From: Myxococcota bacterium
GTDB taxonomy: Bacteria > Myxococcota_A > Polyangia > DASYRF01
Assembly: GCA_036004705.1 (NCBI GenBank)
Contig: DASYRF010000518.1
Coordinates: forward strand, 24 to 64,023
DNA: 64,000 nt
Direction: 5' to 3'
Position numbers and translations under genes: made by a program. Of the stretch, positions 24,332 to 46,006 are shown piece after piece (the stretch's first letter is position 1; every line of letters begins with the position of its first letter). Below the pieces are notes generated by a model, which was given only the letters and a program-made list of their open reading frames with translations, did no database searches and had not been told where the DNA came from.

Positions 24332-26691
24332 AGTGGCGGTCGACGGCGGTGCTGGCGGGCGTGGCGCTGCTGCTGGGCGTCTACCTGCTCGCCTTCGAGC
24401 GCTCGATGCTGACGACCGACGAGGCCAAGGAGCGCGCGGACCGTATCTGGCCCGACGGCGACGTGGACGCGGTCACGGAGTTGGTCGTCGAGCGCGGCGG
24501 CGTGACCGTCACCATGAAGAAGGAAGGGACGGACTGGCACGTCACGGCCCCCACGTTCGCCGACCTGGGCGACGAGACGGAGATCGGGTCGATCCTCGGC
24601 CAGCTGGAGTACGCCAAGGCGGCGCGCGAAGTGGGCGGGCTCACGGATCTCAAGGCCTATGGCACGGGCGCGCCGCGCCTGATCGTGCGCGTGACGATGC
24701 GCGACGGCAAGAAGACGTCCTTCCAATTCGGGGTGGAGGCGCCCGGCGGCAAGCACGTGTACGTGCAGCGCGAGGGCAGCAACGACGTCCTGCTGGTGGA
24801 GAAGACGCTGTTCGAGGCGCTCGACAAGGAGCCGAGCTTCTGGCGCGACAAGCGGCTGTTGGCGGCGGCGCGGACGCGCGCCACGAGCTACACGTTGCGC
24901 GGCGCGGCCGGCGAGAGCTTCGCGGCGTCGCTCAAGAACGGCTTCTGGGTGGCGGGCGAGCCGGCCCCGGGGCGCGCCGCCGACGCCGCCATCGACAAGG
25001 TCTTCACCGCCATGGGCGACGTGAAGATCGAGAAGTTCGTGGACGACGCCGCCGCCGACCTCGCGCCGTACGGGCTGGCGGCGGGCGCGGCCCCGGGAGG
25101 CTCGGCCTCGGTGAGCGAGGCGGCGGGGCGGGTGCTGGCGGTGCGCTTCGGCCGCGCCGAAGGCGACGGGGTGTACGCCACGCGCGAGGGGGCCAAGGGC
25201 GTCTTCCTGGTGAAAGCCGACAAGGTGGCGGCGCTGCTGGCGAGCGCGCGCGACGTGCGCGAGCGCGTGCTGTTCCCGCACGCGCCGCTCGACGTGAAGG
25301 CCATCACCATCACGCGCGACGGCGCGACGCTGGCGCTGGAGAAGGAGACGTCGAAGGAGGGCGGCGAGACCTGGAAGATCACCAAGCCCAAGGAGGGCAC
25401 CGCCGACCTTATGCAGGTGGAGGACGCGCTGCGCGCGTTGCGCAAGCTGACGGTGGTGGACTTCCTCCCGCCCGGCGAGGCGCTGGCTAGCTACGGCCTG
25501 GAGCCGGGGCTGGCGGTGCTGGAGGTCAAGGTGGGCGCGTCGGTAGACCTGCTGGCCGGCGACGAGGCGCCCGGCACGGTGAAGCCGGAAACGCCCGACC
25601 GCGTGGACCGGCTGGTGCTGGGGAAGCTGACGGCCGACGGCTCGGCGCGCTACGCCATCCGCGCCGAGGAGGGCGTCGTGCTGACGGTGCCGGCGGAAGC
25701 GTGGGACCTGCTGGCGCCGAGCCCGCTGCGCTTCCAGGACAAGTCGGTCGTGCGCTTCAACAAGTGGGACGCGCGCGAGCTGACGTTGGTGCGGCCGAGC
25801 GGAACCGTGCACGCGGTCAGCGACGCCGGGGCGTGGAACGTCGACGCCCCCATCAAGGCGAAGGGCGACAAGGACGGCTGCGAGGCAGTGCTGACGCTGC
25901 TGGCGGACCTGAAGGCGGACGAGCTGGTGGAGCTGGACGCCAAGGACGGCGCGAAGTACGGACTCGGCACGCCGAAGTACCGGGTGACGGTGAAGACGAA
26001 GGGATTCGAGGCCGACGCCAAGGAAGAGACTTTCACGGTGGACCTGGGGGGCGACGCGGGCGGCGGCAAGGTCTACGGCTTCGCCCCGGCGAAGGGCATC
26101 GTCTTCAAGATCGACGCGGCGAAGCTGGCGGTGCTCGACAAGGACCTGGTTTCGAAGAAGGTGACCGGGCTGAACGCCTGGGAGGCAAAGTCGCTGCGGT
26201 TCAAGACGGCGAGCGGCGAGCTAGAGCTGCAAAGCGTGGACGACGCTTGGCGGGTGATGCGCCCGGTGGCGGCCGACGCGAACAAGGCGACGGTGGACGC
26301 CTGGCTGAAGGACAACCTAGAAGACCTGGCGGCGGAGAGCATCGCCCCGGCGGCGCCCACCGACGGGGCCACGTACGGGTTCGACGCGCCGCGCCTGGTG
26401 GTGACCGTGGGCGTGGCGGCGGGCGACAAGATCTTCACGGTGGGTGCGAAGGACACGCCCGACGGGCTGGTGCCGGTGCGCGCCGAAGGCACGGCGACGA
26501 TCTACTTCCTGTCGAAGCTCGCCTACGAGAAGCTGAACGCGCGCGTCGAGGACTTCACCGGCACGGGCGCGCCTTCGCCGGCGCCGCCACCGTTGGTGCC
26601 GCCGTCGCCGCCGCCCGGGCTGGGGACGGGCGCGCCCGGCACCGCCACGCCGCCGACCGCGGCGCCCGGCGCAGGTACCGCCGCACCCTGA
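24328..26691 (+). CDS. Large DUF4340-like periplasmic protein (787 aa) with an N-terminal TM anchor and a Pro-rich tail
   Basis: The ATG at 24328 overlaps the upstream stop (ATGA). The N-terminus is MKWRSTAVLAGVALLLGVYLLAF. Repeated beta-rich modules (…W.V..P…AD…V) follow. Its position as the fourth gene after ABC/permease/GldG is the usual DUF4340 context. Confidence 0.7.
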   Translation: MKWRSTAVLAGVALLLGVYLLAFERSMLTTDEAKERADRIWPDGDVDAVTELVVERGGVTVTMKKEGTDWHVTAPTFADLGDETEIGSILGQLEYAKAAREVGGLTDLKAYGTGAPRLIVRVTMRDGKKTSFQFGVEAPGGKHVYVQREGSNDVLLVEKTLFEALDKEPSFWRDKRLLAAARTRATSYTLRGAAGESFAASLKNGFWVAGEPAPGRAADAAIDKVFTAMGDVKIEKFVDDAAADLAPYGLAAGAAPGGSASVSEAAGRVLAVRFGRAEGDGVYATREGAKGVFLVKADKVAALLASARDVRERVLFPHAPLDVKAITITRDGATLALEKETSKEGGETWKITKPKEGTADLMQVEDALRALRKLTVVDFLPPGEALASYGLEPGLAVLEVKVGASVDLLAGDEAPGTVKPETPDRVDRLVLGKLTADGSARYAIRAEEGVVLTVPAEAWDLLAPSPLRFQDKSVVRFNKWDARELTLVRPSGTVHAVSDAGAWNVDAPIKAKGDKDGCEAVLTLLADLKADELVELDAKDGAKYGLGTPKYRVTVKTKGFEADAKEETFTVDLGGDAGGGKVYGFAPAKGIVFKIDAAKLAVLDKDLVSKKVTGLNAWEAKSLRFKTASGELELQSVDDAWRVMRPVAADANKATVDAWLKDNLEDLAAESIAPAAPTDGATYGFDAPRLVVTVGVAAGDKIFTVGAKDTPDGLVPVRAEGTATIYFLSKLAYEKLNARVEDFTGTGAPSPAPPPLVPPSPPPGLGTGAPGTATPPTAAPGAGTAAP

Positions 26692-26692
26692 A

Positions 26693-27628
26693 ATGCCCGC
26701 CTGGAAAGCCAATCCGGCGAACAAAGAGCTGGTCAAGGCGCTGAGGAAGAACCGGCCAGACGCCGGGGTGTACAGCTGGGACCGGACGGCGCGGCTCTAC
26801 AAGGTGTTCGACGCGCTGGGCGAGCCGTTCGTGCACGTGCCCTGGCATCCGTGGGAGCAGATCCTCTGGGAGAACTGCGCCTACCTCGTCGATGACTCCT
26901 GGCGCGAGGGACAGCTCGAAGCGCTGAGCCGGCAGATCGGGCTCGACCCGAAGAAAATCTTGCGCGCGCGCCGTGACCGGCTGCGGCGGGTGCTGAGCTT
27001 CACGGGGACGCGCATCCTCGATCAGCGCGTGGACAAGATCCGCACGTGCGCGGAGCTCTGCCTGCGCGACTTCGGCGGCGACGTACTTGGAACGGTGATG
27101 CCGCTGGCGCCACAGGCGGCGCTGAAGGCCCTGATGAAGTTCCCCGGCATCGGGGTTCCCAGTGCCGAGCGCATCCTCCTATTCATGGGTCACGACCTCT
27201 ACGTGCCGATGGACTCGAACGCGATGCGGCTGGCACTGCGGCTGGGCTACGGCACGCCGAAGAAGAGCTACGACGCGACGTACCGCGCGGTGCAACAGGC
27301 CCTCAAGCGCGAGGCGCGCCCGACACACCGCTGGCTCACGGAGCTATGGGAGAAGCTGCGCTACCACGGCCAGGAGGTCTGCACGCGCACGCCACGCTGC
27401 GAGGAGTGCGTGCTGTGGAACCTGTGCCCCTGGTACAAGGCGCGCTGGGGGCGCAAAGAGCCCGAGGTCTTCAGGTGGGCGCGCAAGATGATCGCGCGTG
27501 ACGAGAAGTATCCTCCCCCGCCTCCGGCGCCGCCGCCTCCGCCCGAGCCCGCGCCCGCGCCGCTCACGGGCAAGCGCAAGGGCAAGGGCAAGGGCAAGCG
27601 CGAGCGTGCGCCGTTCATCCCCTTCTAG
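26693..27628 (+). CDS. HhH-GPD superfamily DNA glycosylase (endonuclease III-like) with a [4Fe-4S] cluster loop and a basic Pro/Lys-rich tail
   Basis: Starts 1 nt after the DUF4340 stop. HhH segment LMKFPGIGVPSAERILLF. Fe-S loop CTRTPRCEECVLWNLC (C-x6-C-x2-C-x5-C). Tail PPPPPAPPPPPEPAPAPLTGKRKGKGKGKRER. Confidence 0.75.
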   Translation: MPAWKANPANKELVKALRKNRPDAGVYSWDRTARLYKVFDALGEPFVHVPWHPWEQILWENCAYLVDDSWREGQLEALSRQIGLDPKKILRARRDRLRRVLSFTGTRILDQRVDKIRTCAELCLRDFGGDVLGTVMPLAPQAALKALMKFPGIGVPSAERILLFMGHDLYVPMDSNAMRLALRLGYGTPKKSYDATYRAVQQALKREARPTHRWLTELWEKLRYHGQEVCTRTPRCEECVLWNLCPWYKARWGRKEPEVFRWARKMIARDEKYPPPPPAPPPPPEPAPAPLTGKRKGKGKGKRERAPFIPF

Positions 27629-27661
27629 GGCAATCCCACCTGCCCCATGTGACGCCCGAAT

Positions 27662-27858
27662 GCGCGGACGGGCCCCCCGGGCTTGATCACTCACGGCGTA
27701 CTCGCCGCGCGGACGGGCCCCCCGGGCTTGATCAATCACGGCGTACTCGCCGCGCGGACGGGCCGCGGGCTTGATCACTCACGGCGTACTCGCCGCGCGG
27801 ACGGGCCCCCCGGGCTTGATCAAGCACGGCGTACTCGCCGCGCGGACGGGCCCCCGGA
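27662..27858. repeat. 45-bp tandem repeat, 4 full copies plus a partial fifth, in a convergent intergenic gap
   Basis: Unit: GCGCGGACGGGCCCCCCGGGCTTGATCACTCACGGCGTACTCGCC. Copies at 27662, 27707, 27752 (43 bp), 27795 and 27840 (partial). Short palindromes CCGCGCGG (at unit junctions), CCCGGG and TGATCA occur in each unit. Confidence 0.9.
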
Positions 27859-30800
27859 TCAGTGAATCGCGGTGGGCGTGGGCGCGCCCGGCGGCGCGTC
27901 CGGAACGGGAGCAGGGGCCGGGGAGGCGGTGGCGGCGGTAGCGGCCGCGTCCGCAGGCGTGCCGAACACGAACAGGTAGTCGCGCAGCAGCTCGATCTGC
28001 TCCTTGTACTTCCCCTTCAACACCGGCGCGTCGTCGGCCGAGGAATCGACCACGTAGAAGAGCGTCGGCATGCGCGTCGACGCCGGCGCCGCGAACGACA
28101 GCGGGTCGGTGAGCCACGTCGCCAGGAACTCGGCGCGCAGACGCTCCTTGGCCAGCGTCAGATCGGGCGCCAGTGCGCTCGGGTCGACGTCGCCCGCCGA
28201 GGCAGCCCCCGCCGCCGGATGGCACTGCTTGCACTGCTTGAAGGCGAACAGCGTCTTCGCATCGGCGAGCCGCTCTCCGCCGAGCGGGTCGTGCACCTGC
28301 GCCTCGAAGGGGAACGACACCTTCGACATCCCCGCGAAGTACCCTGCCAGCGCGGTCGAGTCCTTGTCGCTGAAGCCGAACGTCGGCATGCGCACGTCCA
28401 GCCACGGCCGCAGCGGGATCGGCTCCTTCAGGAACTTGAACACCCAGGGTCCCTGCACCTTCTCGCCCTCGCGCCACAACGACGGCGGACCCTTGGTCGC
28501 GTCGGGGCCCACGAACTTCGCCATCAGCGCCCCGGACCACTGGTCGATGTTGTGGCAGCCGAAGCAGTTGCGGTCGATCATGATGCGCCGCCCGTCGTCG
28601 ACGGCCTTCTCCGCGGGCGTGCGCACGCGCGCCAGCCCGCCGGTGTTCTCCTTGCCGCGGTTTCCCTTCAGGAACACCATCACCGCTTCGAGCTCGTCGG
28701 AGTGCAGCTCGAACTCCGGCATGCGCGTCTCGATGCGCTCGGTGCCGAAGGCGCGCGGGTGCTCCAGCTTCAGCTTCAGCCACACATACCAATTGTGCAG
28801 GTGGTGGTCCTCGACGGCGTTGCCGAAGTCGAGCAGGTTGTGATCCTTGAGGCCGAACTCGCTCAGGTCGGCGCCGATCTTGCCCTCCGACTCCAGCGTG
28901 GGGATGTCGTGGCAGCCCGGGCAGCCGTACTTCTTCACCAGCGCCTGGCCGCGCGCGATGAGGTCCTTGTCCTCTAGGCCCGCCGGTGGCGCGTCGTAGG
29001 CCTTGTCGCCTGTCTTCGTCATCAAGAAGGCGACGATGTCGGCCGCCTCCTGGTCTGGCAGCCGCAGCGACGGCATCCGCGTCGACGGCCACAGCGACTT
29101 CGGGTCCTTGATCCAGGCATAGGCCCATTCGGGCGACAGCTTGGCTCCGACGTTGCTCAGGTCGGGGGCGTGGCTGTAGTGGCTGAAGCGGTTCTTCGTC
29201 GGATCGACCTTCGAGGCCGCGTCGATGGTGTGGCACCCCTCGCAGCCGCGCGCGTGGAAGAGCTTCTCACCGCGCGTCGCGTCGCCGTCGACTGGCAGCG
29301 CCGCCGGGATCGGCCCGCGATCCGCCATCGTCACGCTCATCAGGAAGGCGGTCATCGCCTTGGCCTCGTCGTCGCGTCTCGCCGTGTACGTGGCCAGCGC
29401 CGCCGCCGGATTGGCCGCGTCGTAGATGAGCGGGATCTTGTCGTGGTCGCGCACCTCGGGGAAGAAGTTCGGCATCTTGGTGCGCGGGCGGAACGCCTTG
29501 GGGTACTTGATCCACTCGACCAGCCAGCCCGCCTTCGTCTTCATCCCCAGGCGGTTCAGGTTGGGGCCGATCTTGGCGCGGTCAGCGAACCGCGGGATCG
29601 GGTGGCAGCCGAAGCAGCCCACCTCGGCGACGATCTCCGCCCCGCGCGTCAGCGTTGGCGCCCAGTCGACCAGCCGGAAGCCCTCCAGGTCCTTCCTCTC
29701 GCAGCTCTTCTTGTAGGGCTTGTCGGGGGTGGGCGGCGGCGGCTCGGGCTCGCCGGGCTTGGCTACTGGCTTCACCTCCGTGCAGGCGTAGTTCGACGGG
29801 CAGTCGGTGTCGGCCGCGCACGTCATCTCGTACCAGATCCCCACCTCGGAGTTGTGGCACTTCAGGCAGCTGGCCTCGACGAACTTCTTGCTCGCGCGCA
29901 GCTCGGGCAGCACCGCCAGCATCCCGGCGTGGCCGCCCGCTTCGCCGTGCCCCGCGGCAGCGCCCGCTTCGGCGGCGGCCGTCGCCGGCGCGGCGCTCCC
30001 CGGCACGGCCGTCCCCGCCGCCGCGGCCGCGGCACCCGGCACGTCGGGCAGCTTCTCGAGGTTGCGCGCCGGGTAGAGGTCGAGCAGCGGCGTCTCCCAG
30101 TAGTGGTCGTCGTAGGCGTGGTCGTACTTGGCGCCGAGCGCCCCGACCCCCTTGGTCTGCGGCCCTTCGCCGTCGTGGCAGACCGTGCAGCCGAACGTCT
30201 CCGGCGGATGCTTCGCGAGGAGCACGTCGCGGCGCGGGTGCGTGCGGTACGGGTTGACGTACTTCTCGGTGTTCTCGAAGCCCGCCTTGTCGATGCCTAC
30301 GTGACACGAGACACAACGATCCACGCGCCCCAGGTGCGTGAGATTGAACTGGATGATCTCACTCGACGAGCTCTTCGCCTTCTCGAGCTTGCGCTCGGCG
30401 TCGGCGATCGGCTTCTCGTACTCCTCCAGCTCCTTCTTGATGTCCTCGAGGCGTCCGTCGAACGTCGCCACCTCGGCGAGCGCGGCCTTCTTCGCCGCCT
30501 CCAGCGCGTCGACCTTGGCCTTGATGGCGATGACCTCGGCGGTCTTCTTGCGCAGCAGCAGCTCCTCGCGGATGGCGCAGTATCCGTTCAGCGCCGGGGG
30601 CACCAGCTCCGGGGGCAGACAAAGGCCGGGCGCGTCGCAGTCCGCGTCGGCGGCACAGCTCGCCCCCAGTCCGCGCGGCGCCGGCGTGGCCGCCGGCGTG
30701 TGGCCCGGCGCGGTGATGGCGATGGTGTACTTGTAGAAGAGCTCGTCGCTCTCGCCCTTGCGGAACGCGAGGTTCTGCTCCCCGCCCTTCAGATCGTCGG

Positions 30801-31107
30801 CCACCTTGCGCACCTTGTCCTTGGCGGCGGCGTAGGCGGCGGAGCGGGCAGGGTCCTTCAACCCCGCCTCCAGGTCGGCCATCTCCTTGTGAAGCGCCTC
30901 GATCTTGGCGGCGTCGACCTTGGCCTTGGCGGCGGCGAGCTCTTCCTCCGCCGCCGCGGCGGAGAGGCGCGCGAACTCGTCCTGATAGTTCTTCCACGGA
31001 CGGCGGGTGATGACCTCGTCGTAGGCGACCCAGGCGATCGTCCCGGCGACGATGACGCTCAGGATGAAGAACGACCAGCGGTGGGATTCCTGCTCGACAA
31101 TGGACAC
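27859..31107 (-). CDS. Membrane-anchored octahaem c-type cytochrome (1082 aa) with an N-terminal TM helix and coiled-coil region
   Basis: GTG at 31107. TM segment: WSFFILSVIVAGTIAWVAY. Ala/Glu/Lys-rich heptad-like stretches follow. Eight CXXCH motifs: CVSCH, CTVCH, CLKCH, CFGCH, CEGCH, CPGCH, CFGCH, CKQCH. Several sit in class-I-like units ending in ..MP.F/L. Confidence 0.85.
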   Translation of the reverse strand: MSIVEQESHRWSFFILSVIVAGTIAWVAYDEVITRRPWKNYQDEFARLSAAAAEEELAAAKAKVDAAKIEALHKEMADLEAGLKDPARSAAYAAAKDKVRKVADDLKGGEQNLAFRKGESDELFYKYTIAITAPGHTPAATPAPRGLGASCAADADCDAPGLCLPPELVPPALNGYCAIREELLLRKKTAEVIAIKAKVDALEAAKKAALAEVATFDGRLEDIKKELEEYEKPIADAERKLEKAKSSSSEIIQFNLTHLGRVDRCVSCHVGIDKAGFENTEKYVNPYRTHPRRDVLLAKHPPETFGCTVCHDGEGPQTKGVGALGAKYDHAYDDHYWETPLLDLYPARNLEKLPDVPGAAAAAAGTAVPGSAAPATAAAEAGAAAGHGEAGGHAGMLAVLPELRASKKFVEASCLKCHNSEVGIWYEMTCAADTDCPSNYACTEVKPVAKPGEPEPPPPTPDKPYKKSCERKDLEGFRLVDWAPTLTRGAEIVAEVGCFGCHPIPRFADRAKIGPNLNRLGMKTKAGWLVEWIKYPKAFRPRTKMPNFFPEVRDHDKIPLIYDAANPAAALATYTARRDDEAKAMTAFLMSVTMADRGPIPAALPVDGDATRGEKLFHARGCEGCHTIDAASKVDPTKNRFSHYSHAPDLSNVGAKLSPEWAYAWIKDPKSLWPSTRMPSLRLPDQEAADIVAFLMTKTGDKAYDAPPAGLEDKDLIARGQALVKKYGCPGCHDIPTLESEGKIGADLSEFGLKDHNLLDFGNAVEDHHLHNWYVWLKLKLEHPRAFGTERIETRMPEFELHSDELEAVMVFLKGNRGKENTGGLARVRTPAEKAVDDGRRIMIDRNCFGCHNIDQWSGALMAKFVGPDATKGPPSLWREGEKVQGPWVFKFLKEPIPLRPWLDVRMPTFGFSDKDSTALAGYFAGMSKVSFPFEAQVHDPLGGERLADAKTLFAFKQCKQCHPAAGAASAGDVDPSALAPDLTLAKERLRAEFLATWLTDPLSFAAPASTRMPTLFYVVDSSADDAPVLKGKYKEQIELLRDYLFVFGTPADAAATAATASPAPAPVPDAPPGAPTPTAIH

Positions 31108-31242
31108 GGTGCTCTCTCCTGCAGCCCCGTCGGCGGGGCGACGGCCCTATGTCCCGGAAACCGCCCGGAATTTCACGCGCGCTGTGCTATCACGAGCGCC
31201 GCACGGGTGTCAACGCCGACGGCCGCCGCGCGGCGCAGGCGG

Positions 31243-32457
31243 TCAGGCGCCGCTGGCCAGGGCGCGGGCCAGGCGCGCGAGGCCCTCACGCAGGTCGTCC
31301 GCCCCCACGGCCGTGTAGCAGACCCGGAACCAGGCGGTGTAGTCGCGGCCGAAGGCTTCGCCCGGGGCGAGCGAGACGCCCGCTTGCACGGCGCGCTCGA
31401 TGAAGGCCCACGACCCGCCGGCGGCGAGGCGGGGCGGCACCCGGGCGAAGACGTAGGCGCCTCCCTCGGGGGCGTGGAACTCGGCGCCGGCAGCGCGCAG
31501 GGCGTCCACGGTGAGGTCGCGCGCCTCGGCGTAGTCGCGTCGCATGCGCTCGACCCAGGCGTCGCCCGCGCGCAGGGCGCCGAGGCCGCACCATTGCGCC
31601 GCGTCGGGCGGGTTGTAGACGACGTGGTTGGCGATACGCCGCATCGCCGCGCGCGCCGGCTCGGGTGCGTACAGGTAGCCGAGGCGCGTTCCGGACATCG
31701 CATAGCTCTTGGAAAACGTGAACGACGTCAAGGTGCGGTCGGCCATGCCGGGAAGCGCGCCGATCGACACGTGCAGCGGGGCGGGGGCGACGGCGCCGGC
31801 GGCGGCGCGGCCGGAAGCCGCCCCGGGCGCGGCGGCGCGGGGCGGCGGGAAGACGTACTCCTCGTACGCCTCGTCGGCGAGGCACCAAAGATCGTGGGCC
31901 TGGCAGAACGCCGCCAGGCGCTCCAGCTGCGCGCGCGACAAGATCTTCCCGTCGGGATTGTTGGGCGTGATGAGGTAGAGCGCCACCGTACGCGGCGTGA
32001 CGTGCGGCTCCAGCAGGGCGGCCGGATCGGCGCCCGGATCGTCGTAGAGCGGCTGGGTGAGCGGCACCTCCACCGGAACGCCGCCGGCGGCGCGGACGAT
32101 GCCGCGAATGAGCGGCCAGTAGGGCGCCGCGACCAGCACCTCGTCGCCCGGGTCGAGCAGCGCGCGCACGCCGGCGAAGATGGCCTGGGTCGCGCCGCAC
32201 GTCACCTGCACGTCGTCGGCGCCGGCCATCAGCCCGTTGCGGCGGCGAAGCTTCTCGGCGAGCGCCGCGCGTAGCTCGGGCAGCCCGTGCGGATGGCCGT
32301 AGCGGTAGAGCCCGTGCTCCGCCTCGTGGGTGGGCCAATCGGGCGCCTCGAAGCGCGCCTCGGCCGGCGGCGAGCAGAACGCGTCGCCGACGTGAAGCTG
32401 GATGACCCCCGGCGGCGCGCGCCGCATCATCTCGCCGAGCGTGGCGAACACCGACAT
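31243..32457 (-). CDS. Class I/II pyridoxal-phosphate-dependent aminotransferase
   Basis: ATG at 32457 (MSVFATLGEMM). Conserved blocks: ITPNNPDGK, the PLP-lysine block TFSKSYAMSGTRLGY, and PGEAFG. Confidence 0.85.
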   Translation of the reverse strand: MSVFATLGEMMRRAPPGVIQLHVGDAFCSPPAEARFEAPDWPTHEAEHGLYRYGHPHGLPELRAALAEKLRRRNGLMAGADDVQVTCGATQAIFAGVRALLDPGDEVLVAAPYWPLIRGIVRAAGGVPVEVPLTQPLYDDPGADPAALLEPHVTPRTVALYLITPNNPDGKILSRAQLERLAAFCQAHDLWCLADEAYEEYVFPPPRAAAPGAASGRAAAGAVAPAPLHVSIGALPGMADRTLTSFTFSKSYAMSGTRLGYLYAPEPARAAMRRIANHVVYNPPDAAQWCGLGALRAGDAWVERMRRDYAEARDLTVDALRAAGAEFHAPEGGAYVFARVPPRLAAGGSWAFIERAVQAGVSLAPGEAFGRDYTAWFRVCYTAVGADDLREGLARLARALASGA

Positions 32458-32564
32458 CTGCAAATGCACGGCATGCGAGCCGACGTCGGGAAAGCGCGGC
32501 ACGGGCGCATGGTAGCGCAGGTCGCGAACGCGCGGGCGAGGGTCCGTACGGCGGGGAACGAGGG

Positions 32565-33809
<1,245 letters not shown>

Positions 33810-33814
33810 CGTCA

Positions 33815-35188
33815 TCAGAAGAACAGGTGCGCGAACACGAGCACCTCGTCCTCCCCGTTGGTGTGGAACGACTCCGCCTTGGTCACGCGATGACGCCACA
33901 TGAGCTTGATCTCGGAGTTGGCGGTGAAGAAGAGCTCGAAACCGGCCCCGAAGCGCGTCTCCGCGCCCGAGGCCAGCGACAGGTCGGGGTCCTTGAACTC
34001 CCACGTGCCGACGACGTCGAACCCTTGCAGTACGGCGAACGACAGCTCGTGATAGACCGCGAGCCCGCGCGCGAAGCCCGTCGTCGACGCGTCGCCCACG
34101 CGCAGGTCCGTGCCACACGCCTCGCCCATCATCGGCGGCACCGTCGCCACCCAGGGGACGTTTTGCGCCAGGTCCGCCTCGGCCAAGTAGGTGAAGCGCC
34201 CCAACGACGCGCCCAGGAACCCGCCCGCGAGGAGCTCCTGGACGCCGCAAGGGGTGGGGCCGGTGGCGCCCGCCAGCAGCGGCGTGGGGCCGCTGACGTG
34301 CGTGCGCACCGCGGCGCTCAGCCCCAGCACCAGGCTGAGGTCCTTGAAGGCATGCGCGAACGTCAGCGTGGCGTACCCGCCGTAGCTCTGGTAGGGCGAC
34401 GCCGACCGCGCCCCGGTGGCGAGCGCGGTGTTGCTGAAGGGGAGGCCGAGCGCGAGGTTCAGCTGGAACGGCCCGACGTAGACGCCCGCCTCGACCCCCG
34501 TCTCGCGCGTCAGCGGCCCGACACCCAGCTCCTCGGTGACGTACGCGCGGTGCTCCTCCAGCCGCAACCCGTAGCTCGGCGTGAAATGGCCGGCGCGCAC
34601 GTAGCCCTTGCCGGGATGCGTGTACAGCGCCCACGCTTCGTAGCCGGCGCCGCGCACCGACTTGTCCACGTAGAACGTCGTGAAGCGGCCCAGCTGCGCC
34701 ATCACGTAGACGTCGGCCTGCATCAGGAAGAACCCGTCGCCGGGGAAGTCCTGCGCGTTCAGCGGATCGCCGGTGATGGGGTCCTCGCCGACCTTGTCGA
34801 CGTGCAGGAACGCCAGGCGCAGGTCGCCGCCGATCGCCAGCCAGTCGGTCAGGGCGCCGCTCAGGCCGAAGCCACGCCACTTGCCCTCGGCCGCGGACGG
34901 CGCCCCGGCGGGGTCGTCGGCGTAGTCCCCCGCCATGGCCTTTTCTTGTGGGTCCAGGAAGCTGAACGCCAGGCGCGTCTTCTCGAAGACGTCGCGCCCG
35001 TAGTCATTGCGCCCGCCGCCGCCGTTGGGGTTCACGTGGCACAGCGTGCAGTGCGCGCCGTTGCGCACGGCGAACCGCGGTAGCGCGCGCGCGGCGACGG
35101 GGGCGGCCAGGAGCGCCACGACACCCAGGACGACCGCGGCGGCCCGCGCCGCGACCGTCGCCGCGACCCCCCGTTGGCGGGCAAGCAT
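33815..35188 (-). CDS. Outer-membrane beta-barrel-like protein with a single N-terminal CXXCH haem motif (Cyc2-like fused cytochrome-porin architecture)
   Basis: ATG at 35188. Signal peptide MLARQRGVAATVAARAAAVVLGVVALLAAPVAARA, then LPRFAVRNGAHCTLCHVNPNGGGGRNDYG. About 400 aa of alternating amphipathic strand-like segments follow. The terminus VLVFAHLFF is typical of OM barrels. Confidence 0.65.
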   Translation of the reverse strand: MLARQRGVAATVAARAAAVVLGVVALLAAPVAARALPRFAVRNGAHCTLCHVNPNGGGGRNDYGRDVFEKTRLAFSFLDPQEKAMAGDYADDPAGAPSAAEGKWRGFGLSGALTDWLAIGGDLRLAFLHVDKVGEDPITGDPLNAQDFPGDGFFLMQADVYVMAQLGRFTTFYVDKSVRGAGYEAWALYTHPGKGYVRAGHFTPSYGLRLEEHRAYVTEELGVGPLTRETGVEAGVYVGPFQLNLALGLPFSNTALATGARSASPYQSYGGYATLTFAHAFKDLSLVLGLSAAVRTHVSGPTPLLAGATGPTPCGVQELLAGGFLGASLGRFTYLAEADLAQNVPWVATVPPMMGEACGTDLRVGDASTTGFARGLAVYHELSFAVLQGFDVVGTWEFKDPDLSLASGAETRFGAGFELFFTANSEIKLMWRHRVTKAESFHTNGEDEVLVFAHLFF

Positions 35189-35302
35189 GGGTGCCTGATA
35201 TCATCGTCGCCCGGCGCAGGTCAACGACACGCGCGGGGCTGGCACGTTCGCGGTGCCGGCCGTCCAACAGCGAGGGTGTGGGGCACCGGCGCGCGGACGT
35301 GC

Positions 35303-35330
35303 TTGACACACCCCGGCGCGGCCCTAGATT
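35303..35330 (+). promoter_or_regulatory. Candidate promoter upstream of dnaJ (sigma-70-like; also partly resembles a sigma-32 heat-shock promoter)
   Basis: TTGACA (35303-35308), a 16-nt spacer, then TAGATT (35325-35330). Read another way, CTTGAC-N14-CCCTAGAT resembles CTTGAA-N13/14-CCCCATNT. It lies 54 nt upstream of the ATG at 35384. Pattern match only. Confidence 0.4.
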
Positions 35331-35383
35331 ACGCATAGTCTGCCCTCCGGGCGAGGCGCCCGCGGCCGGAGCGGCAGCACGTC

Positions 35384-36559
35384 ATGACCAAACGTGATTA
35401 CTACGAAGTCCTGGGAATCGACCGGGCCGCCGACGGCGGCGCCGTCAAGAAGGCTTATCGCCAAAGGGCGTACGAGTTCCATCCCGACCGTAACCCAGGC
35501 GACAAGTCCGCCGAGGAGAAGTTCAAGGAAGCCGCCGAGGCGTACGAGGTCCTGTCCAACCCAGACATGCGCGCCGCGTACGACCGCTTCGGCCACGAGG
35601 CCGTCCGCCGCGGCGCCGGCGGCGGACCGTCGCCGTTCTCCGGCTTCCAGAACGTCGAAGACGTCTTCTCCCATTTCAGCGACATCTTCAGCGACATGTT
35701 CGGGTTCGGCGGCTTCGGCGCCGGGCGCCGCCGGGGCGGGCGGCGCGCCGGCCCCGCGCGCGGCGCGGACCTGCGCTACGACGTGGAGCTGGAGTTCCTG
35801 GAGGCGGCCAGCGGGGTCAAGCGCGAGCTGAAGCTGGAGGAGCTGGTGGCGTGCGCCGCGTGCGGCGGCAGCCGCGCCGAGCCGGGCAGCGCGCCCCAGA
35901 CCTGCCCGCGCTGCGACGGGCGCGGCCAGATCGTCCACAGCCAGGGAATGTTCATGCTGTCGACGACCTGCCCGCAGTGCCGCGGCGAGGGGCAGGTCAT
36001 CGCCAAGCCGTGCCGCACGTGTGGCGGCGAGGGACACGTGCGCCAGCAGCGCAAGATCAGCGTCGACATCCCCGCGGGCGTGGACGACGGCGTGACGATG
36101 CGCCTGCGCGGCAAGGGCTCGGCCGGCGAGCGGGGCGGCCCGGCCGGCGACCTGCACGTGGTGATCCACGTGAAGGCGCACCCAGAGTTCGTGCGCAAGG
36201 ACTACGACGTGCACTCCGAGCTCGCCGTTTCGTTCGTGCAGGCCGCGCTCGGCCACAAGACGAGCGTCAGCACCGTGCACGGGGAGGCGGACGTGGAGGT
36301 GCCGCGCGGGTCGCAGCCCGGGTCGACCATCGTGCTGCGCGGGAAAGGTGTCCCCCACCTACCGCAGGACGGCGGCGGAGCCGGGAGCCACGTCGTACAC
36401 GTGCGCGTCGAGATCCCCGAGGAGCTGACGCCGGCGCAGGAGAAGCTGATGGAACAGCTCGCCGCCGAAATGAGCGTCGACGTCCACCCGGTGAAGAAGA
36501 AGGCCAAGCGCGGCGGGCTGCGCTCCTTCCTGGAGCGCCTGCGCGACGAGATTGGCTGA
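35384..36559 (+). CDS. dnaJ: Molecular chaperone DnaJ (type I)
   Basis: J domain DYYEVLGI...AYRQRAYEFHPDRNPGD. Gly/Phe-rich region. Four CxxCxGxG zinc-finger repeats: CAACGGSR, CPRCDGRG, CPQCRGEG, CRTCGGEG. Confidence 0.95.
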   Translation: MTKRDYYEVLGIDRAADGGAVKKAYRQRAYEFHPDRNPGDKSAEEKFKEAAEAYEVLSNPDMRAAYDRFGHEAVRRGAGGGPSPFSGFQNVEDVFSHFSDIFSDMFGFGGFGAGRRRGGRRAGPARGADLRYDVELEFLEAASGVKRELKLEELVACAACGGSRAEPGSAPQTCPRCDGRGQIVHSQGMFMLSTTCPQCRGEGQVIAKPCRTCGGEGHVRQQRKISVDIPAGVDDGVTMRLRGKGSAGERGGPAGDLHVVIHVKAHPEFVRKDYDVHSELAVSFVQAALGHKTSVSTVHGEADVEVPRGSQPGSTIVLRGKGVPHLPQDGGGAGSHVVHVRVEIPEELTPAQEKLMEQLAAEMSVDVHPVKKKAKRGGLRSFLERLRDEIG

Positions 36560-36693
36560 GCCGGCCCCCGCGCCGCCGCCGCAGGCGAGAGCCGGCGCAG
36601 CATCGTTGAAGCTCGCGTTCCTCGACGGCCTCCGAGGCGGGCCCGGGGCGCGACACGCGGCGGACGAGCGCGTCCCCCGTGGTGCAGGGCGGG

Positions 36694-38745
36694 TCAGGGC
36701 GCAGGCGCGGGCGCGGGCGCGCTCGCCGGCGTACTGGCCGGTGCGCTCGCCGGTGTGCTCGCCGGCTCGCTCGCCGGTGCGCTCGCCGGCGCCGCGGGCG
36801 GCGGCGTGGTCAGCGCGTGCCGCGGCCCCATCGCCTCGCCGCGCGTCGCCAGCACGTACGCGACGACGTCGTCGATCTCCTTGTGCGTCAGCTTCTCGCC
36901 GAACTTCGGCATCTCGTTCAACGGCCCGAAGAACTTCTCACCGCCCGGATCGTGGACGAACTCCTCCAGCCATCCCGCCGTGGCGTAGCCCTTCAGCTCC
37001 GGCCCCGGCGTTCCGTAGTCGCGCCCCTCGCCGGCGTACAGATGGCAATTCTTGCACTCCTTGTCGGCGAACAGCTTCTTTCCCTTGGCTACCAGCGCGG
37101 CGTCGACCGCCTTCTCGCCGCCCTCCGCCAGCATGTATTCGGCCAGCGCCTCTGCCTCGCCGGGGCCGTCGTAGGGCGGCATCAAGCGCATCTTCGTCGG
37201 CCCGAACAGCCGCGGCTCTTCGGCGAGCCGCATGACCGCCACCAGCCATTCGCGCCGCGCCCAGCCCATCAGCTCGGGCGCACGGTCGCCGCCCTCGCCC
37301 GCCAGCTTGTGGCACTGCTGGCAATGCTCGACGAACACGCGGGCGCCGTTCGTCATGGGGTCGCTCTCCCAGAGCGCCGGGCCCCCGCCGGGCGGCACGC
37401 CGCCCGCCGCCAGCGCCACCGCGCGCGCGGCGATCGCGTCCGCCTCGGGCCGCGCCTTGGCCACGGCCGGGTCGAGCGCGTCCTCGTGAATGGCGAGCGC
37501 CGTGAACGCCACTACCGCGCCCAGCCCGGCGAAGACCAGCACCGTCCAGCGCCCGCGCCGCCCCGCGGCCGCCTCCGGTCCGCTGTCGGGCTCGGGCATC
37601 TTCCACAGACTCCAGCCCACCAGGGCGAACACCGCCGCGGTCGGCAACACCACCGCCCAGAGCAACCGCACCACGTCGCGCGGCCCCGGGCTGCCGAAGC
37701 CCGCCAGGTTCAGCGCGACCGCCAGCAGCGCCGGCGCGACGAAGGCGAGCGCCGGCTTGAGCCCGCCGTTGGCCGCGCGGCGCTCGGGGCCGCGATCCAG
37801 GAACGGCAACGCCAGCGCCAACAGCGAGGCCAGCCCTGGCAGCACGACAGTGCCGATCGGCTGCAGCGGCCCCTCGAAGTACTTCAGCAGCTGGAACAGC
37901 GCCATGTAGTACCACTCGGGACGCGCCAGATAGTTCGACGACGGGTCGGCCGGCGCGTCGAGGCGCGCGCCGCGCGCGGCGAACACGACCGCTGCGACCA
38001 CCACGAGGACCGCCGTCATGAAGAACGCGTCGCGCGCCGCCTGCTGCGGCCAGTAGGTGTCGACGCGCGCCAGCGTCGCCTTGCCCGCCCAGGGCGGCGG
38101 CGTCGCGCCCTTCCGCCGGTAGAGATACAGGTGCGCGACCGACAGCGCCACGACCAACCCGGGCAGGACGAACGCGTGCAACGCGAAGAAACGCGTCAGC
38201 GTGAGGTTTCCAAAGTCGCTCCCGCCCACCACAAGGCGATCGAGCGCCGCGCCGACCAGCGGCGTCGACGCGATGATGTTCGTCGCGACGCGCGTCGCCG
38301 CGAAGGCACGCTGGTCCCACGGCAGCAGGTAGCCGGTGAAGCCCAGCCCGAGGATGAGGAACGCGAGAAGCACGCCCACCATCCAGTTCAGCTCGCGCGG
38401 CGCCTTGTGCGCACCGTAGACGAACGTCTGCGCGCAATGCGCCACGACCAGCACGATCAGCGCGCTGGAGCCCCAGTGGTGCAGGCCGCGCAGCAGCCAC
38501 CCGCCGGTGACCTGGTACTGGATGAAGTAGACGCTCGCCCACGCGTCGGTGGCGGACGGGCTGTAATAGAACGCCAGCAGCACGCCGGTCACCGCCTGCA
38601 GGGCGAAGGTGGCGAGCAGCGCGGTGCCGAACACGCGCGCCCAGCGCGCTCCGCCCGGCAGCGGCGCGTCGGCGAAAGCGCGCCACAGCCGCGCCACGCC
38701 GGCGCGGTCGTCCAGCCACTCCCACAGCCGCCGCAGCCCGCGCAT
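36694..38745 (-). CDS. Cytochrome b (N- and C-terminal domains fused) with a C-terminal dihaem cytochrome c domain
   Basis: ATG at 38745 (MRGLRRLWEWLDDR). Conserved blocks: FYYSP, GLHHWGSSALIVLVVAH, FTGYLLPWDQ, FFALHAFVLP and PEWYYMALFQLLK. Extra TM helices are followed by CQQCH and CKNCH. Pro/Ala/Ser-rich tail. Confidence 0.9.
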   Translation of the reverse strand: MRGLRRLWEWLDDRAGVARLWRAFADAPLPGGARWARVFGTALLATFALQAVTGVLLAFYYSPSATDAWASVYFIQYQVTGGWLLRGLHHWGSSALIVLVVAHCAQTFVYGAHKAPRELNWMVGVLLAFLILGLGFTGYLLPWDQRAFAATRVATNIIASTPLVGAALDRLVVGGSDFGNLTLTRFFALHAFVLPGLVVALSVAHLYLYRRKGATPPPWAGKATLARVDTYWPQQAARDAFFMTAVLVVVAAVVFAARGARLDAPADPSSNYLARPEWYYMALFQLLKYFEGPLQPIGTVVLPGLASLLALALPFLDRGPERRAANGGLKPALAFVAPALLAVALNLAGFGSPGPRDVVRLLWAVVLPTAAVFALVGWSLWKMPEPDSGPEAAAGRRGRWTVLVFAGLGAVVAFTALAIHEDALDPAVAKARPEADAIAARAVALAAGGVPPGGGPALWESDPMTNGARVFVEHCQQCHKLAGEGGDRAPELMGWARREWLVAVMRLAEEPRLFGPTKMRLMPPYDGPGEAEALAEYMLAEGGEKAVDAALVAKGKKLFADKECKNCHLYAGEGRDYGTPGPELKGYATAGWLEEFVHDPGGEKFFGPLNEMPKFGEKLTHKEIDDVVAYVLATRGEAMGPRHALTTPPPAAPASAPASEPASTPASAPASTPASAPAPAPAP

Positions 38746-38753
38746 CGCGCGCG

Positions 38754-39308
38754 TCAGGCCTCGACCCGCGCGGCGAGGCCGGTGCGGTAGCGGCGGAATT
38801 CCACCCACAGCTCGCCGCCCTTCACCTCGGCGTGAAGCTCGTCCATCCCGCGCGGCGCCGGGCCGGAGAGGCGCGCGCCGTCGAGGGAGAAGTTGCTCGT
38901 GTGGCACGGACAGGCGAAGTGGCTCGTGACGGGGTCGAGGTCCACCGCGCAGCCGAGATGCGGGCAGGTGGCGGAGAACACCTTGACGGTGCTCTCGCCG
39001 GTACGCACCACCCAGGCGGCGCCGAGACGTACGCCGTCGAAACGGCTCCAGGCGTCGCGCAGCGCCGCCGTGATGTTCACGCGCACCGGCACGCCGACGT
39101 TGAACCGCCCGAGCTGGCCGAGCGAAAGGGCCCCGGCGGCGCCGCGGGACACGGGGTCCTTGCGGAGCGGGTGGATGAGAAAGCCGACGGCCGGAGCGCC
39201 CACCAGGAGCGTTACGGCCGCGCCGAGAAGCCCGACCGCCAGGCCGATGAACGAGCGACGCGGCGGCTCGGTGGAAGCCGGCGCGGAATCGGCGGCTGCG
39301 TGCGCCAC
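38754..39308 (-). CDS. Rieske [2Fe-2S] protein of a cytochrome bc-type complex
   Basis: GTG at 39308. Tat-like RRSFIG plus a TM anchor. Cluster ligands CPHLGC and CPCH. Ends 8 nt before the cytochrome b start. Confidence 0.9.
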   Translation of the reverse strand: MAHAAADSAPASTEPPRRSFIGLAVGLLGAAVTLLVGAPAVGFLIHPLRKDPVSRGAAGALSLGQLGRFNVGVPVRVNITAALRDAWSRFDGVRLGAAWVVRTGESTVKVFSATCPHLGCAVDLDPVTSHFACPCHTSNFSLDGARLSGPAPRGMDELHAEVKGGELWVEFRRYRTGLAARVEA

Positions 39309-42759: not shown

Positions 42760-44007
42760 TCAGCGCCAGGTGCTCAGGTCCAGCGTCGTGGAGTCGAGCT
42801 TGACGATCGGCACCAGGCGCGACGTCATGCGCACCGTCCCGTCGGCGCTGACGAACAGGGCGTCCAGGTCCGCGCGCGCCTCGATGAGGGGCAGCCCGCG
42901 GTCGGCGCCCATCACGAACAGCCCGGTGTCGAGCGCGTCCGCCAGCACCGTCGTCGAGGCCAGTGCCGTCACCGAGACGGTGTGCTCCACCGGATACCCC
43001 GTCTTCGGGTCGATGATGTGGTGGTAGTGCTTTCCGTCGATTATAGCATATCTCTCGTAATCTCCGGCCGTGGTGATGGCGCGGTTCGTGAGCGACAGCC
43101 GCGCGAACTGGTAGCCGTGGATGCGTGGGTGGGCCACGCCGACCATCCAACCTTGCGTGCCCTTCCGCCCCGACACGTAGAGGTCGCCGGAGCCGTCCAC
43201 GATGAAGTCGTCGAAGCCGCGCCGGTGCAGGATGGCGGAGCAGCGGTCCACGGCGATGCCCTGGCCGATGCCGCCGAGCCCGATGGCCATGCCGCGCTTC
43301 TCGATGAACGCCGTCCCCGCGGCGCGATCGAGCTTGACCTTGCGGTAATCGACCAGCGCGATGGCCTTGGCGAGCTCCGCCGGATCGGGGAGCTTGGGCG
43401 CGGGGTCCTTCAGCTTCCAGAGCCGGCCGATGGGAAGGAACGTGATGTCGAACCCGCCTTCGGTCATGGCGCCCACGTCGAGGGCGACCTGCAAGGTCTC
43501 GATCAGCTCGGGCGACACCTTCACGGGCGCCACACCGGCGGCGGCGTTGACGTGCGAGATCTCGGTGTCGGGCTTCCACTCCGACAGCACAGACTCGAGC
43601 CGCGCGATCTCGGCGAAGCACTCGGTGATGGGCGCCTCGGCGGCGGCCGGGTCGCGCGTAGCGATTGCCACCTCCCAGTGCGTCGTCATGAGGAACGTGC
43701 GCCGCCGCACCGTGAACAGCCCCGGCTGCCCCGGCACCTCGCGCACGGTGGACGGCAGCGGCCCGCCCGCCGCGCCGATCGGCCCGCCGCCCGTGTCGCT
43801 CTCGGCCGCCGCCCCCGCCGCCGTGCCGGCGGCCGCCCCTGTCGCGGGCCGCGCCGCGCCGCTCGCCGAAGTGCCCGCCGCCCGCCCTGGTACCGGCCCG
43901 ACCATCCCGCCAGGCGCCGCCCCGCCGGCCGGCTCGCATGCCGGCGCGAGCGCTAGCGCGAGAACGAGCGCCTGGGCGCGCACGGTCGCGATCGCGGAGC
44001 AGCGCAT
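42760..44007 (-). CDS. apbE: FAD:protein FMN transferase (ApbE family) lipoprotein
   Basis: ATG at 44007 (MRCSAIATVRAQALVLALALAPAC lipobox). Conserved blocks: SEW.PDTEIS.VN, GGFDIT, LGGIGQG, TAGDYERY and HHIIDPKTG. Confidence 0.85.
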   Translation of the reverse strand: MRCSAIATVRAQALVLALALAPACEPAGGAAPGGMVGPVPGRAAGTSASGAARPATGAAAGTAAGAAAESDTGGGPIGAAGGPLPSTVREVPGQPGLFTVRRRTFLMTTHWEVAIATRDPAAAEAPITECFAEIARLESVLSEWKPDTEISHVNAAAGVAPVKVSPELIETLQVALDVGAMTEGGFDITFLPIGRLWKLKDPAPKLPDPAELAKAIALVDYRKVKLDRAAGTAFIEKRGMAIGLGGIGQGIAVDRCSAILHRRGFDDFIVDGSGDLYVSGRKGTQGWMVGVAHPRIHGYQFARLSLTNRAITTAGDYERYAIIDGKHYHHIIDPKTGYPVEHTVSVTALASTTVLADALDTGLFVMGADRGLPLIEARADLDALFVSADGTVRMTSRLVPIVKLDSTTLDLSTWR

Positions 44008-44082
44008 CACGAGCGGGATGTGACCACGACGTGCCCATGACCGCAACCGCTGCACCCGACCGCGCGGTCCGCCGGTGGTCCG

Positions 44083-45541: not shown

Positions 45542-46006
45542 TCATTGCACGGTGAATGCGAGGTACATTCCGAGCGCGTAATGGCTGACGGGCGCGGCGG
45601 GCGGATTGTCCATGACCACGTTGCAGAACAGCACGTAGCTCCCGGCCGCCAGGTCCAGCGTGACCATGCCCGTTCCCGCGGGGTCGAGCTCCGATACCTC
45701 GCCCGGCGAGTCGAGCATCGCCTCGTCCACGCTCCCATCCGCCATCGTGGGGAGTGCGCCGGGCGCGAGGTCTGTCCGCGCCACGACCATTTCATGGATC
45801 ATGGATCCGTTGTTCGTGGCCACGAAGGTCACCAGACCCGCCGGCACGGTCGTTTGGTCAGGCGTGATGGTGAAGTCGGCCAGCGCGACGTTGACCGTCG
45901 TCATTGTCGGCGCGGCATCCGAGCCCGTGTCCCCGCCTCCGCAAGCGGACATCCACGGTACGGCGGCGAGAACGGCCACACGGAAGGCAAAGAGGCAGAG
46001 TCTCAT
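45542..46006 (-). CDS. Cupredoxin-like (type-1 copper-type) lipoprotein
   Basis: ATG at 46006 with AAGGGAGA upstream. Lipobox AAVPWMSAC. Candidate ligands: H in SMIHEM, C in VLFCN, and H/M in SHYALGM. The beta-sandwich-like pattern FTITP..TVPAG.VTF is present. Confidence 0.65.
   Translation of the reverse strand: MRLCLFAFRVAVLAAVPWMSACGGGDTGSDAAPTMTTVNVALADFTITPDQTTVPAGLVTFVATNNGSMIHEMVVARTDLAPGALPTMADGSVDEAMLDSPGEVSELDPAGTGMVTLDLAAGSYVLFCNVVMDNPPAAPVSHYALGMYLAFTVQ

Follow-up and report, generated by a model that had tools for sequence, protein, structure and literature searches.

A divergent Cyc2-like cytochrome-porin paired with a dihaem cytochrome and recurrently linked to an octahaem cytochrome in Myxococcota

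Do the cytochrome genes that lie close together on a Myxococcota contig encode a path for electrons across the cell envelope, or are they separate parts of ordinary respiration? We analyzed a 64,000-nucleotide (nt) stretch of contig DASYRF010000518.1 from assembly GCA_036004705.1 (hereafter, the window), which encodes a fused cytochrome-porin, a dihaem and an octahaem cytochrome c, a Rieske protein and a cytochrome b (Table 1). A preliminary description of this DNA had proposed a conduit from the outer membrane to the quinone pool. The part of that proposal that stands is the linkage of porin, dihaem and octahaem, which recurs in other genomes; the part that falls is the inclusion of the window's Rieske and cytochrome b genes, an ApbE flavin transferase and a cupredoxin, none of which is linked to the three in relatives. 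We give an even chance to the reading that porin, dihaem and octahaem are a recurrently linked module joining the outer membrane to the inner-membrane respiratory chain. Gene identities, folds, homology, co-occurrence and synteny are what the analysis shows; how the proteins make contact, which substrate they use and which way electrons flow we infer. The conserved association includes the octahaem's own b6-type complex where that is present, and the window's bc-type genes, ApbE and the cupredoxin are bystanders.

The porin and the dihaem are a conserved pair. We compared the window proteins by tblastn with eight loci from relatives and 29 public loci. A dihaem homologue was found within ~2 kb of the porin in all eight relative loci and in 23 of the 29 public loci; the public loci without one are distant porin copies from Ignavibacteria, Bacteroidota and Fibrobacter. 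We then surveyed 201 genomes of the source genome's class, which yielded the porin in 11 genomes (E ≤ 1e-12), the dihaem in 35 (E ≤ 1e-25) and the octahaem in at least 13 (E ≤ 1e-40). All 11 porin genomes carry the dihaem, and the top-scoring dihaems are the porin-adjacent ones. The cultured bradymonad Persicimonas caeni (CP042468.1, 2246988-2266196) has a minimal trio in the order cupredoxin-porin-dihaem. One genome of the class (G013; contigs C5, C12, C176 and C247) shows an unusual expansion, with at least five porin-dihaem pairs.

The octahaem is associated with the porin at a wider scale. Comparison of the co-occurrence and synteny of the three genes in relatives, which the preliminary description had proposed as a check, gave a positive outcome: alongside the pair in the public loci, 7 of the 11 porin genomes carry the octahaem, and four of these have it as a neighbor of the porin gene. 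The seven genomes represent seven different families. Fisher's test returned p = 2e-7 by genome and p ~9e-4 by family (6/7 versus 3/23), values that are indicative only because relatives are not independent. The four genomes with neighboring genes (the source genome, G000, and G013, G019 and G036) belong to four families and show four gene orders. Contig C247 of G013 reads b6, subunit IV, octahaem, lipoprotein, porin. On contig C242 of G019, a Rieske-b6-subunit IV-octahaem operon is divergent from a copper protein-porin-dihaem operon. Contig C7 of G036 has thirteen tightly spaced co-directional genes that span the porin through the octahaem and include the Rieske, b6 and subunit IV genes: a flavoprotein, two monohaem cytochromes, the porin, the dihaem and a PMT_2 membrane protein, followed by Rieske, cytochrome b6, subunit IV, the octahaem, a CarboxypepD_reg protein, an outer-membrane-protein-like protein and a small cytochrome. 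On the porin tree, the octahaem-linked porins belong to two distinct clades, so the linkage is not one inherited accident.

What kind of protein is the octahaem? It has one N-terminal transmembrane helix, a ~200-residue coiled-coil hairpin stalk with a Cys-rich tip, and eight haems, of which three are probably bis-His and five belong to His/Met class-I domains. All eight CxxCH motifs and five M-P motifs (the Met ligand) are invariant across ~30 homologues, which are 900-1200 amino acids (aa) long and occur in Myxococcales, NC10, Eisenbacteria and Bacteroidota. The AlphaFold2 model (predicted local distance difference test, pLDDT, 71) comprises the transmembrane helix, helices at residues 37-132, then a Cys-rich loop predicted with low confidence (140-164), a return helix (180-246) and the haem domains. 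Foldseek found no solved equivalent of it, with a best E of 0.7 and matches to coiled-coil hairpins only (EnvC, EmrA, colicins). In four of the six genomic contexts that we looked up (L050, L052, L054 and L055), the octahaem is the fourth gene of a Rieske/cytochrome b6/subunit IV operon; the other two contexts lack bc genes. At three loci (L028, L038 and L056) the gene adjoins porins and also keeps its bc-operon position. In L052, cox genes follow it directly; on a Bacteroidota contig it precedes a CarboxypepD_reg protein and the complete gene set for aa3 oxidase and haem A. The most plausible reading is that the octahaem serves a second, less common type of Rieske/b complex as its membrane-anchored c subunit.

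In the window, the octahaem is not in the bc-operon position and is preceded by an aminotransferase, the dihaem and the porin. At L055 (GCA_027338665.1), a Rieske-b6-subunit IV-octahaem-ferredoxin operon lies ~5 kb from a convergent ABC2/GldG/DUF4340 operon, and the same transporter genes converge on the octahaem in the window (21677-31107). Because this convergent operon is shared, the window octahaem may hold the ancestral position, with its bc genes displaced. A 45-bp tandem repeat (4.4 copies, 93% matches; 27662-27855) fills the space between the octahaem stop codon and a convergent Nth-like glycosylase gene.

We assessed whether the Rieske and cytochrome b genes of the window, termed type 1 here, belong with the porin. 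The Rieske protein has the ligand motifs CPHLGC...CPCH and its gene lies 8 nt upstream of the cytochrome b gene. The cytochrome b is a b6 plus subunit IV-like protein of ~9 transmembrane helices followed by two class-I cytochrome c domains; all four haem-b ligands are present with b6-type spacing (H89-x13-H103 and H190-x14-H205), and the Pfam matches of both proteins are above cut-offs. The preliminary description had cautioned that the bc-type genes might be ordinary respiration, and the survey bears this out for Rieske and cytochrome b: the C-terminal part of the fused cytochrome b was detected in at least 84 of the 201 class genomes (E ≤ 1e-8), and the genes are never porin-linked elsewhere. 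They form a two-gene unit in all six loci that we fetched (L065-L070), with no porin, dihaem or octahaem within ~7 kb in any of the six. In other porin genomes, this unit and the porin are on different contigs. We therefore rejected the pair as a porin-specific partner, since it is class-wide and not porin-linked in the other genomes checked. It is probably the class-wide quinol:cytochrome c oxidoreductase of ordinary respiration, and its position beside the porin is probably incidental.

The source genome has three kinds of Rieske/b locus, of which the window is one. A second (C95:13003-15912) encodes Rieske, cytochrome b and a nine-haem cytochrome, with a sigma-54 activator upstream. The third (C36:8138-9115 / C470:10738-13367) has the order Mrr_cat-Rieske-b6-subunit IV-ferredoxin, which is the canonical octahaem-operon context with no octahaem in it. 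The ends of C36 and C470 share an 80-nt overlap with ~89% identity, and the two contigs represent either a single locus split by strain variation or a pair of paralogues. Elsewhere, the genome encodes one aa3-type oxidase and one cytochrome bd.

We examined the identity of the porin-cytochrome by sequence and by structure. The protein is 457 aa long, with a hydrophobic signal segment at residues 18-36 that ends in ARA, a single CTLCH at residues 47-51 in the context ALPRFAVRNGAH-CTLCH-VNPNGGGG, and a barrel C-terminus reading HLFF. It matches no Pfam or NCBIfam family, a sequence search of the PDB gave nothing useful, a word-indexed homologue search with the porin alignment did not reach named Cyc2, and tblastn of plasmids gave no match. 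The AlphaFold2 model, built with 18 homologues (pLDDT 73.7; predicted template modelling score 0.76), has an N-terminal helical haem segment followed by exactly 16 strands. Foldseek matched this model to 16-18-strand porins, including OprP (2o4v) and OprO (4rjw), with E ~1e-11 and template modelling scores of ~0.5-0.57. Both OprP and OprO have been reported as templates for Cyc2 (PMC8406198). Used in an exhaustive HMMER search, the porin family profile retrieved 4194 cluster representatives at E ≤ 1e-3, including 835 at ≤ 1e-30. The consensus of the best 198 matches reads A-x-A-L-P-R-F-A-x-R-[T/N]-G-x-x-CxxCH-V-N-P-[T/S]-G-G-G-[M/L]-R-[N/T]-x-[Y/F]-G.

By its published definition, Cyc2 has AXPXFAR[Q/K][T/Y] ahead of the haem site and PXL behind it (PMC8406198). 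We used the criteria of Keffer et al. 2021 and FeGenie, which are a length of at least 365 aa, a signal peptide, one N-terminal CXXCH, AXPXFAR[Q/K][T/Y] upstream, PXL 4 residues downstream and a 16-strand barrel. The porin has the length, the signal peptide, the single N-terminal CXXCH and a predicted OprO/OprP-like 16-strand barrel. Searching 301 genomes (phylum of Ignavibacteria/Bacteroidota) with the porin profile also retrieved open reading frames of 410-456 aa with the exact published Cyc2 motif, ATPVFARQTGMSCTACHFQRYPMLNAFGR and AIPAFARKYGTSCYTCH. The spacing from F to Cys (8 residues) is the same in the porin and in motif-defined Cyc2, which reads CH-F-Q-R-Y-P-M-L after the haem site. 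Aligned by hhalign to a profile of 10 motif-defined Cyc2, the porin subfamily profile scored a probability of 96.6% and E 5.5e-10, with the alignment confined to the 125 N-terminal columns. The porin is therefore probably a remote Cyc2 homologue of like architecture and belongs to a distinct subfamily, not to Cyc2 sensu stricto. A second fused cytochrome-porin is encoded in the source genome on a 2.3-kb contig (C320:139-2049, minus strand; AFPSFATLADGGRCASCHYAPAGGGLLNAWGRD...); this paralogue belongs to the 'YPQFQ' subfamily.

The dihaem has its CxxCH motifs at residues 141 and 263. Its start is either 33809, a doubtful start codon that leaves 5 nt to the porin, or Met49 at ~33665, which leaves ~149 nt and yields a signal peptide of normal form. 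Codons 1-48, ahead of that signal peptide, encode a (Thr-Pro)n repeat from (ACGCCG)n with lower G+C at third codon positions (0.81 versus 0.92-0.96); residues 1-48 are either an unusual N-terminal extension or non-coding sequence ahead of a Met49 start. A PDB sequence search returned one strong match, chain B of 6H5L (6h5l_B; E 8.4e-51, residues 130-329), which is Kustc0457, and otherwise weak single-domain class-I matches. No c4/Cyc1 entry appeared in this search at E ≤ 0.01. The preliminary description had seen in the porin followed by a dihaem a mirror of the cyc2-cyc1 order. Because no c4/Cyc1 entry matches the dihaem, the resemblance is architectural and not orthologous: the arrangement is alike, and the homology points to 6H5L_B instead.

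We identified the recurrent neighbors of the porin by clustering all open reading frames of the 29 public loci. A plastocyanin/azurin-type copper protein is encoded directly upstream of the porin in 17 of the 29 loci, and a ~1200-aa protein, in which five PSCyt1 haem domains and FN3 domains alternate, is present in 16. Other recurrent neighbors are a PEGA protein, a ~200-aa lipoprotein, a Ser/Thr kinase and a sigma-54 two-component pair. In Kofleriaceae-type loci (L023-L033, L057 and L062; e.g., L029:874-4407), the PSCyt1/FN3 cytochrome is followed by the plastocyanin-type copper protein and the PEGA protein, upstream of the porin. None of these recurrent neighbors (copper protein, PSCyt1/FN3 cytochrome, PEGA protein, lipoprotein, kinase, sigma-54 pair) is near the window porin. 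We considered the cupredoxin at 45542 as an equivalent of the porin-adjacent plastocyanin-type protein and rejected it, as its best match had E 8e-4 in a tiny database and it is not syntenic. ApbE was likewise rejected as part of the system, being present in none of the relative loci. Neither ApbE nor the cupredoxin has conserved linkage in relatives, and murJ separates both from the cluster.

How might electrons move through such a module? In the reading that we favor, electrons would pass between the single haem of the porin and a soluble species, either extracellular or entering the periplasm, for which Fe(II) is the likeliest candidate. The dihaem, soluble and Kustc0457-like, would ferry electrons over the periplasm. 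The octahaem would act as a membrane-anchored hub, passing electrons to the aa3 oxidase or exchanging them with the quinone pool via a Rieske/b complex. We infer that electrons more probably flow inward, with Fe(II) or some other soluble donor feeding the aerobic chain, because the Cyc2 proteins assayed to date are Fe(II) oxidases (PMC8406198), because relatives add a blue-copper protein, because five octahaem domains are His/Met, and because the octahaem family is linked to oxidases. This last feature indicates a high-potential chain with O2 as its end point.

The alternative that survives best, though we hold it to be unlikely, is export in the opposite direction: quinol would be oxidized by Rieske/b and the electrons passed through octahaem, dihaem and porin haem to a soluble acceptor outside the cell (Fe(III) chelates, Mn(III) or humic quinones, for example). 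The co-directional porin-dihaem-Rieske-b6-subunit IV-octahaem cluster of G036 reads as a full quinol-to-surface chain, and signs of autotrophy are absent from the source genome. Myxococcota are rich in cytochromes for extracellular electron transfer, a process that Anaeromyxobacter carries out (bioRxiv 10.1101/2022.03.26.485925), and the potentials of c-type carriers and of Cyc2 (+208 mV, Cyc2PV-1; PMC8406198) permit either direction. However, outward function is not known for any Cyc2-type protein, and one haem enclosed within a porin cannot make contact with minerals. The blue-copper partners and the oxidase-linked octahaem of the relatives also suit a chain ending at O2.

A shade more doubtful is the explanation that there is no dedicated conduit, and that the genes serve independently in a general pool of periplasmic cytochromes, made up of an ordinary aerobic chain and an unrelated outer-membrane haem protein, and cluster only loosely, as is common for respiratory genes. 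The class-wide distribution of the window's Rieske and cytochrome b, unlinked to porins elsewhere, fits this explanation, as does the octahaem's place as a normal bc subunit beside cox genes in Bacteroidota. The porin and octahaem are on different contigs in three of the seven genomes that have both. The string of redox genes is also broken by dnaJ and an aminotransferase, interruptions that the preliminary description had pointed out and that Pfam and NCBIfam searches confirm. Against independence stands the adjacency in four of the seven genomes, in four orders, when ~0.3% is expected for a random gene pair to fall within 10 kb in a 7-Mb genome. The family-level co-occurrence and the tight 13-gene cluster of G036 argue the same way.

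Several observations weigh against the module as we read it. At the locus itself, the three genes are not one tight operon: the aminotransferase lies between dihaem and octahaem, and the porin gene and the octahaem gene each follow a gap of ~135 nt that contains a promoter-like -35 box. The octahaem's usual Rieske/b6/subunit IV genes are on other contigs (C36/C470), so the bc partner of the hub is elsewhere. Among relatives, four Kofleriaceae-like porin genomes lack the octahaem and have the PSCyt1/FN3 cytochrome instead, and several octahaem genes stand alone. The porin departs from the Cyc2 motif on both sides of the haem site: upstream it reads A-L-P-R-F-A-V-R-N, which keeps AxPxFA and has V-R-N instead of R[Q/K][T/Y], and downstream, where PXL is expected, it reads CH-V-N-P-N-G-G-G-G, a Pro followed by a Gly run. 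Finally, no RuBisCO was found in the source genome, which is 89.8% complete, and the lifestyle of a lithoautotrophic iron oxidizer is therefore not indicated.

The least probable alternative, a role of the porin-dihaem pair in handling a non-iron substrate (Mn(II), reduced sulfur or nitrogen species, or a redox-active organic) or in envelope redox protection instead of energy conservation, draws on the departure of the subfamily from validated Cyc2 at the haem-flanking residues, on the nitrite-reducing HAO-like enzyme partnered by the dihaem's only strong solved relative (PMC8042395) and on the acknowledged uncertainty about the function of divergent Cyc2 clusters (PMC8406198), but the architecture is that of Cyc2, and HAO-like, Nir, Sox and Mn-oxidase genes were not seen in the window or in the conserved neighborhoods.

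A more specific version of the favored module is that the octahaem, with a coiled-coil hairpin of ~10-14 nm, is a periplasm-reaching hub that physically couples Rieske/b6 and the aa3 oxidase to the outer-membrane haem-porin via the dihaem. We regard this as a long shot. If it were true, it would represent a previously undescribed trans-envelope respiratory assembly in non-lithotrophic Myxococcota, and ordinary heterotrophs could harvest electrons from, or dump them on, soluble iron.

The region sits on a 64-kb contig with a G+C content of 73%, in a genome of 7.2 Mb and 527 contigs, of soil or groundwater type, whose closest sampled relatives share only its class; named homologues put it within Myxococcota. 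We considered that the contig might be chimeric; nothing suggests this, as composition is even across the region. The five minus-strand redox genes were recovered where the preliminary description had placed them, and all translate cleanly. Its count of 13 CxxCH sites was reproduced, with eight in the octahaem, two in the dihaem, one in the porin and two in the cytochrome b fusion. Pfam and NCBIfam searches support most of the gene identities, with the porin lacking a match (Table 1). The dnaJ gene splits the type 1 bc operon from the porin operon and is outside the redox set; it was not seen near porins in the 8 relative and 29 public loci. The position of the aminotransferase is not conserved either, since among these 37 loci it was seen in one unrelated Fibrobacteraceae locus only. 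Two plus-strand genes, encoding an unknown 549-aa protein and MurJ, separate the Rieske gene from ApbE. An Rfam search of 27-47 kb gave no matches. Ahead of the porin (35197-35224) and octahaem (31185-31213) genes there are near-perfect -35 boxes, TTGACC and TTGACA, each with a weak GAT-A-type -10-like element ~16 nt on; a consensus promoter scan called neither site. The -10-like element of the porin is 8 nt before the ATG, and its mRNA could be leaderless.

Table 1. Genes of the redox neighborhood and adjacent genes in the window, with the evidence for each assignment
Feature	Coordinates	Strand	Evidence or remark
Fused cytochrome-porin, Cyc2-like	33815-35188	-	Sequence, AlphaFold2, Foldseek, hhalign
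Periplasmic dihaem class-I cytochrome c	32565-33809	-	Pfam, two class-I domains, PDB 6h5l_B match
Membrane-anchored octahaem cytochrome c	27859-31107	-	8 CxxCH; multi-domain class-I/c7-like
Cytochrome b fused to C-terminal dihaem cytochrome c	36694-38745	-	PF00033/PF13631, NCBIfam
Rieske 2Fe-2S subunit	38754-39308	-	PF00355
dnaJ	35384-36559	+	TIGR02349, 403.7 bits, above cut-off
Class I/II aminotransferase, between dihaem and octahaem	31243-32430	-	PF00155, E 1.3e-57
ApbE flavin transferase	42760-44055		Pfam/NCBIfam; longest open reading frame (44007 in the preliminary description)
Cupredoxin	45542-46006		Weak/borderline match, 27.1 bits (cut-off 27)

Metagenome studies rely mainly on Cyc2 as the genetic marker of iron oxidation, and Cyc2 matches in Myxococcota are already known from hidden Markov model surveys. 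In the searchable literature we found the porin subfamily motif, its Kustc0457-like partner and the octahaem bc subunit nowhere described, nor any account of how they are linked. Our analysis defines a large divergent branch (the 4194 cluster representatives) that is probably homologous to true Cyc2 and fails the published motif screen. It also gives this branch conserved partners: the Kustc0457-like dihaem, in many cases a copper protein of the plastocyanin type, and, within several families of myxobacteria, the octahaem. Should the link prove functional, common heterotrophs of soil and groundwater would electrically connect soluble extracellular iron to the aerobic chain, and the reading of Cyc2-like matches would change. 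As a cultured carrier of the minimal module, Persicimonas caeni is a possible laboratory model.

We compared the system with known ones, starting with the Cyc2 family (A. ferrooxidans Cyc2, Mariprofundus Cyc2PV-1 and Leptospirillum Cyt572). The porin shares with these proteins the signal peptide, the single N-terminal CXXCH, the A-x-P-x-F-A box, a downstream N-x-[FY]-G-R box, the 16-strand OprO/OprP-like barrel and a length of ~400-460 aa. The porin subfamily differs in having x-R-[N/T] for R[Q/K][T/Y] and P-x-G-G-G, with two extra residues, for PXL. Its hosts are heterotroph-type Myxococcota, Bradymonadia and Ignavibacteria, not known iron oxidizers. By analogy, MtrCAB, PioAB and MtoAB may be likened to the porin, as an outer-membrane barrel and c-type haem move electrons across the outer membrane in those systems and would do so here. 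Those systems are two- or three-protein complexes in which a decahaem is threaded through a 26-strand barrel, whereas here there are one polypeptide, one haem and 16 strands.

Kustc0457 is a dihaem cytochrome c that partners Kustc0458, an HAO-like nitrite reductase (PMC8042395). The homology covers the whole dihaem core, and the dihaem of the window, like Kustc0457, would be a periplasmic-side carrier that docks on a larger redox partner. The window dihaem is instead partnered with the porin-cytochrome and the octahaem, with no HAO, and has an N-terminal Ala/Pro-rich linker and a ~85-aa C-terminal extension. For the octahaem, the closest comparison is with Rieske/b6 complexes that have multihaem c subunits (the dihaem types of heliobacteria and epsilonproteobacteria, Geobacter Cbc and the Rieske/b complexes of anammox bacteria), which have the same Rieske, split b6/subunit IV and membrane-anchored multihaem c as the fourth gene. 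Unlike in those complexes, the c subunit here is a ~1000-aa octahaem with a ~200-residue coiled-coil hairpin and no solved structural match, and in the source genome its gene is detached from the Rieske/b6 genes.

The rus and pet operons are the conceptual precedent for the arrangement as a whole. The rus operon of A. ferrooxidans (cyc2-cyc1-cup-coxBACD-rus) also begins with an outer-membrane haem-porin followed by a dihaem periplasmic cytochrome. Like the relatives of the window, the rus and petI (cycA1-sdrA1-petABC) systems have a blue-copper protein in the cluster, and they link to an aa3-type oxidase and to Rieske/b branches. The parts differ: the dihaem is not a c4 (Cyc1/CycA1) homologue, the copper protein of the relatives is plastocyanin-type and not rusticyanin, and the Rieske/b partner is a b6/subunit IV complex with the octahaem, not a bc1 with c1. 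Whereas rus and pet are separate operons, some of the genomes studied here join the porin and Rieske/b genes in one cluster.

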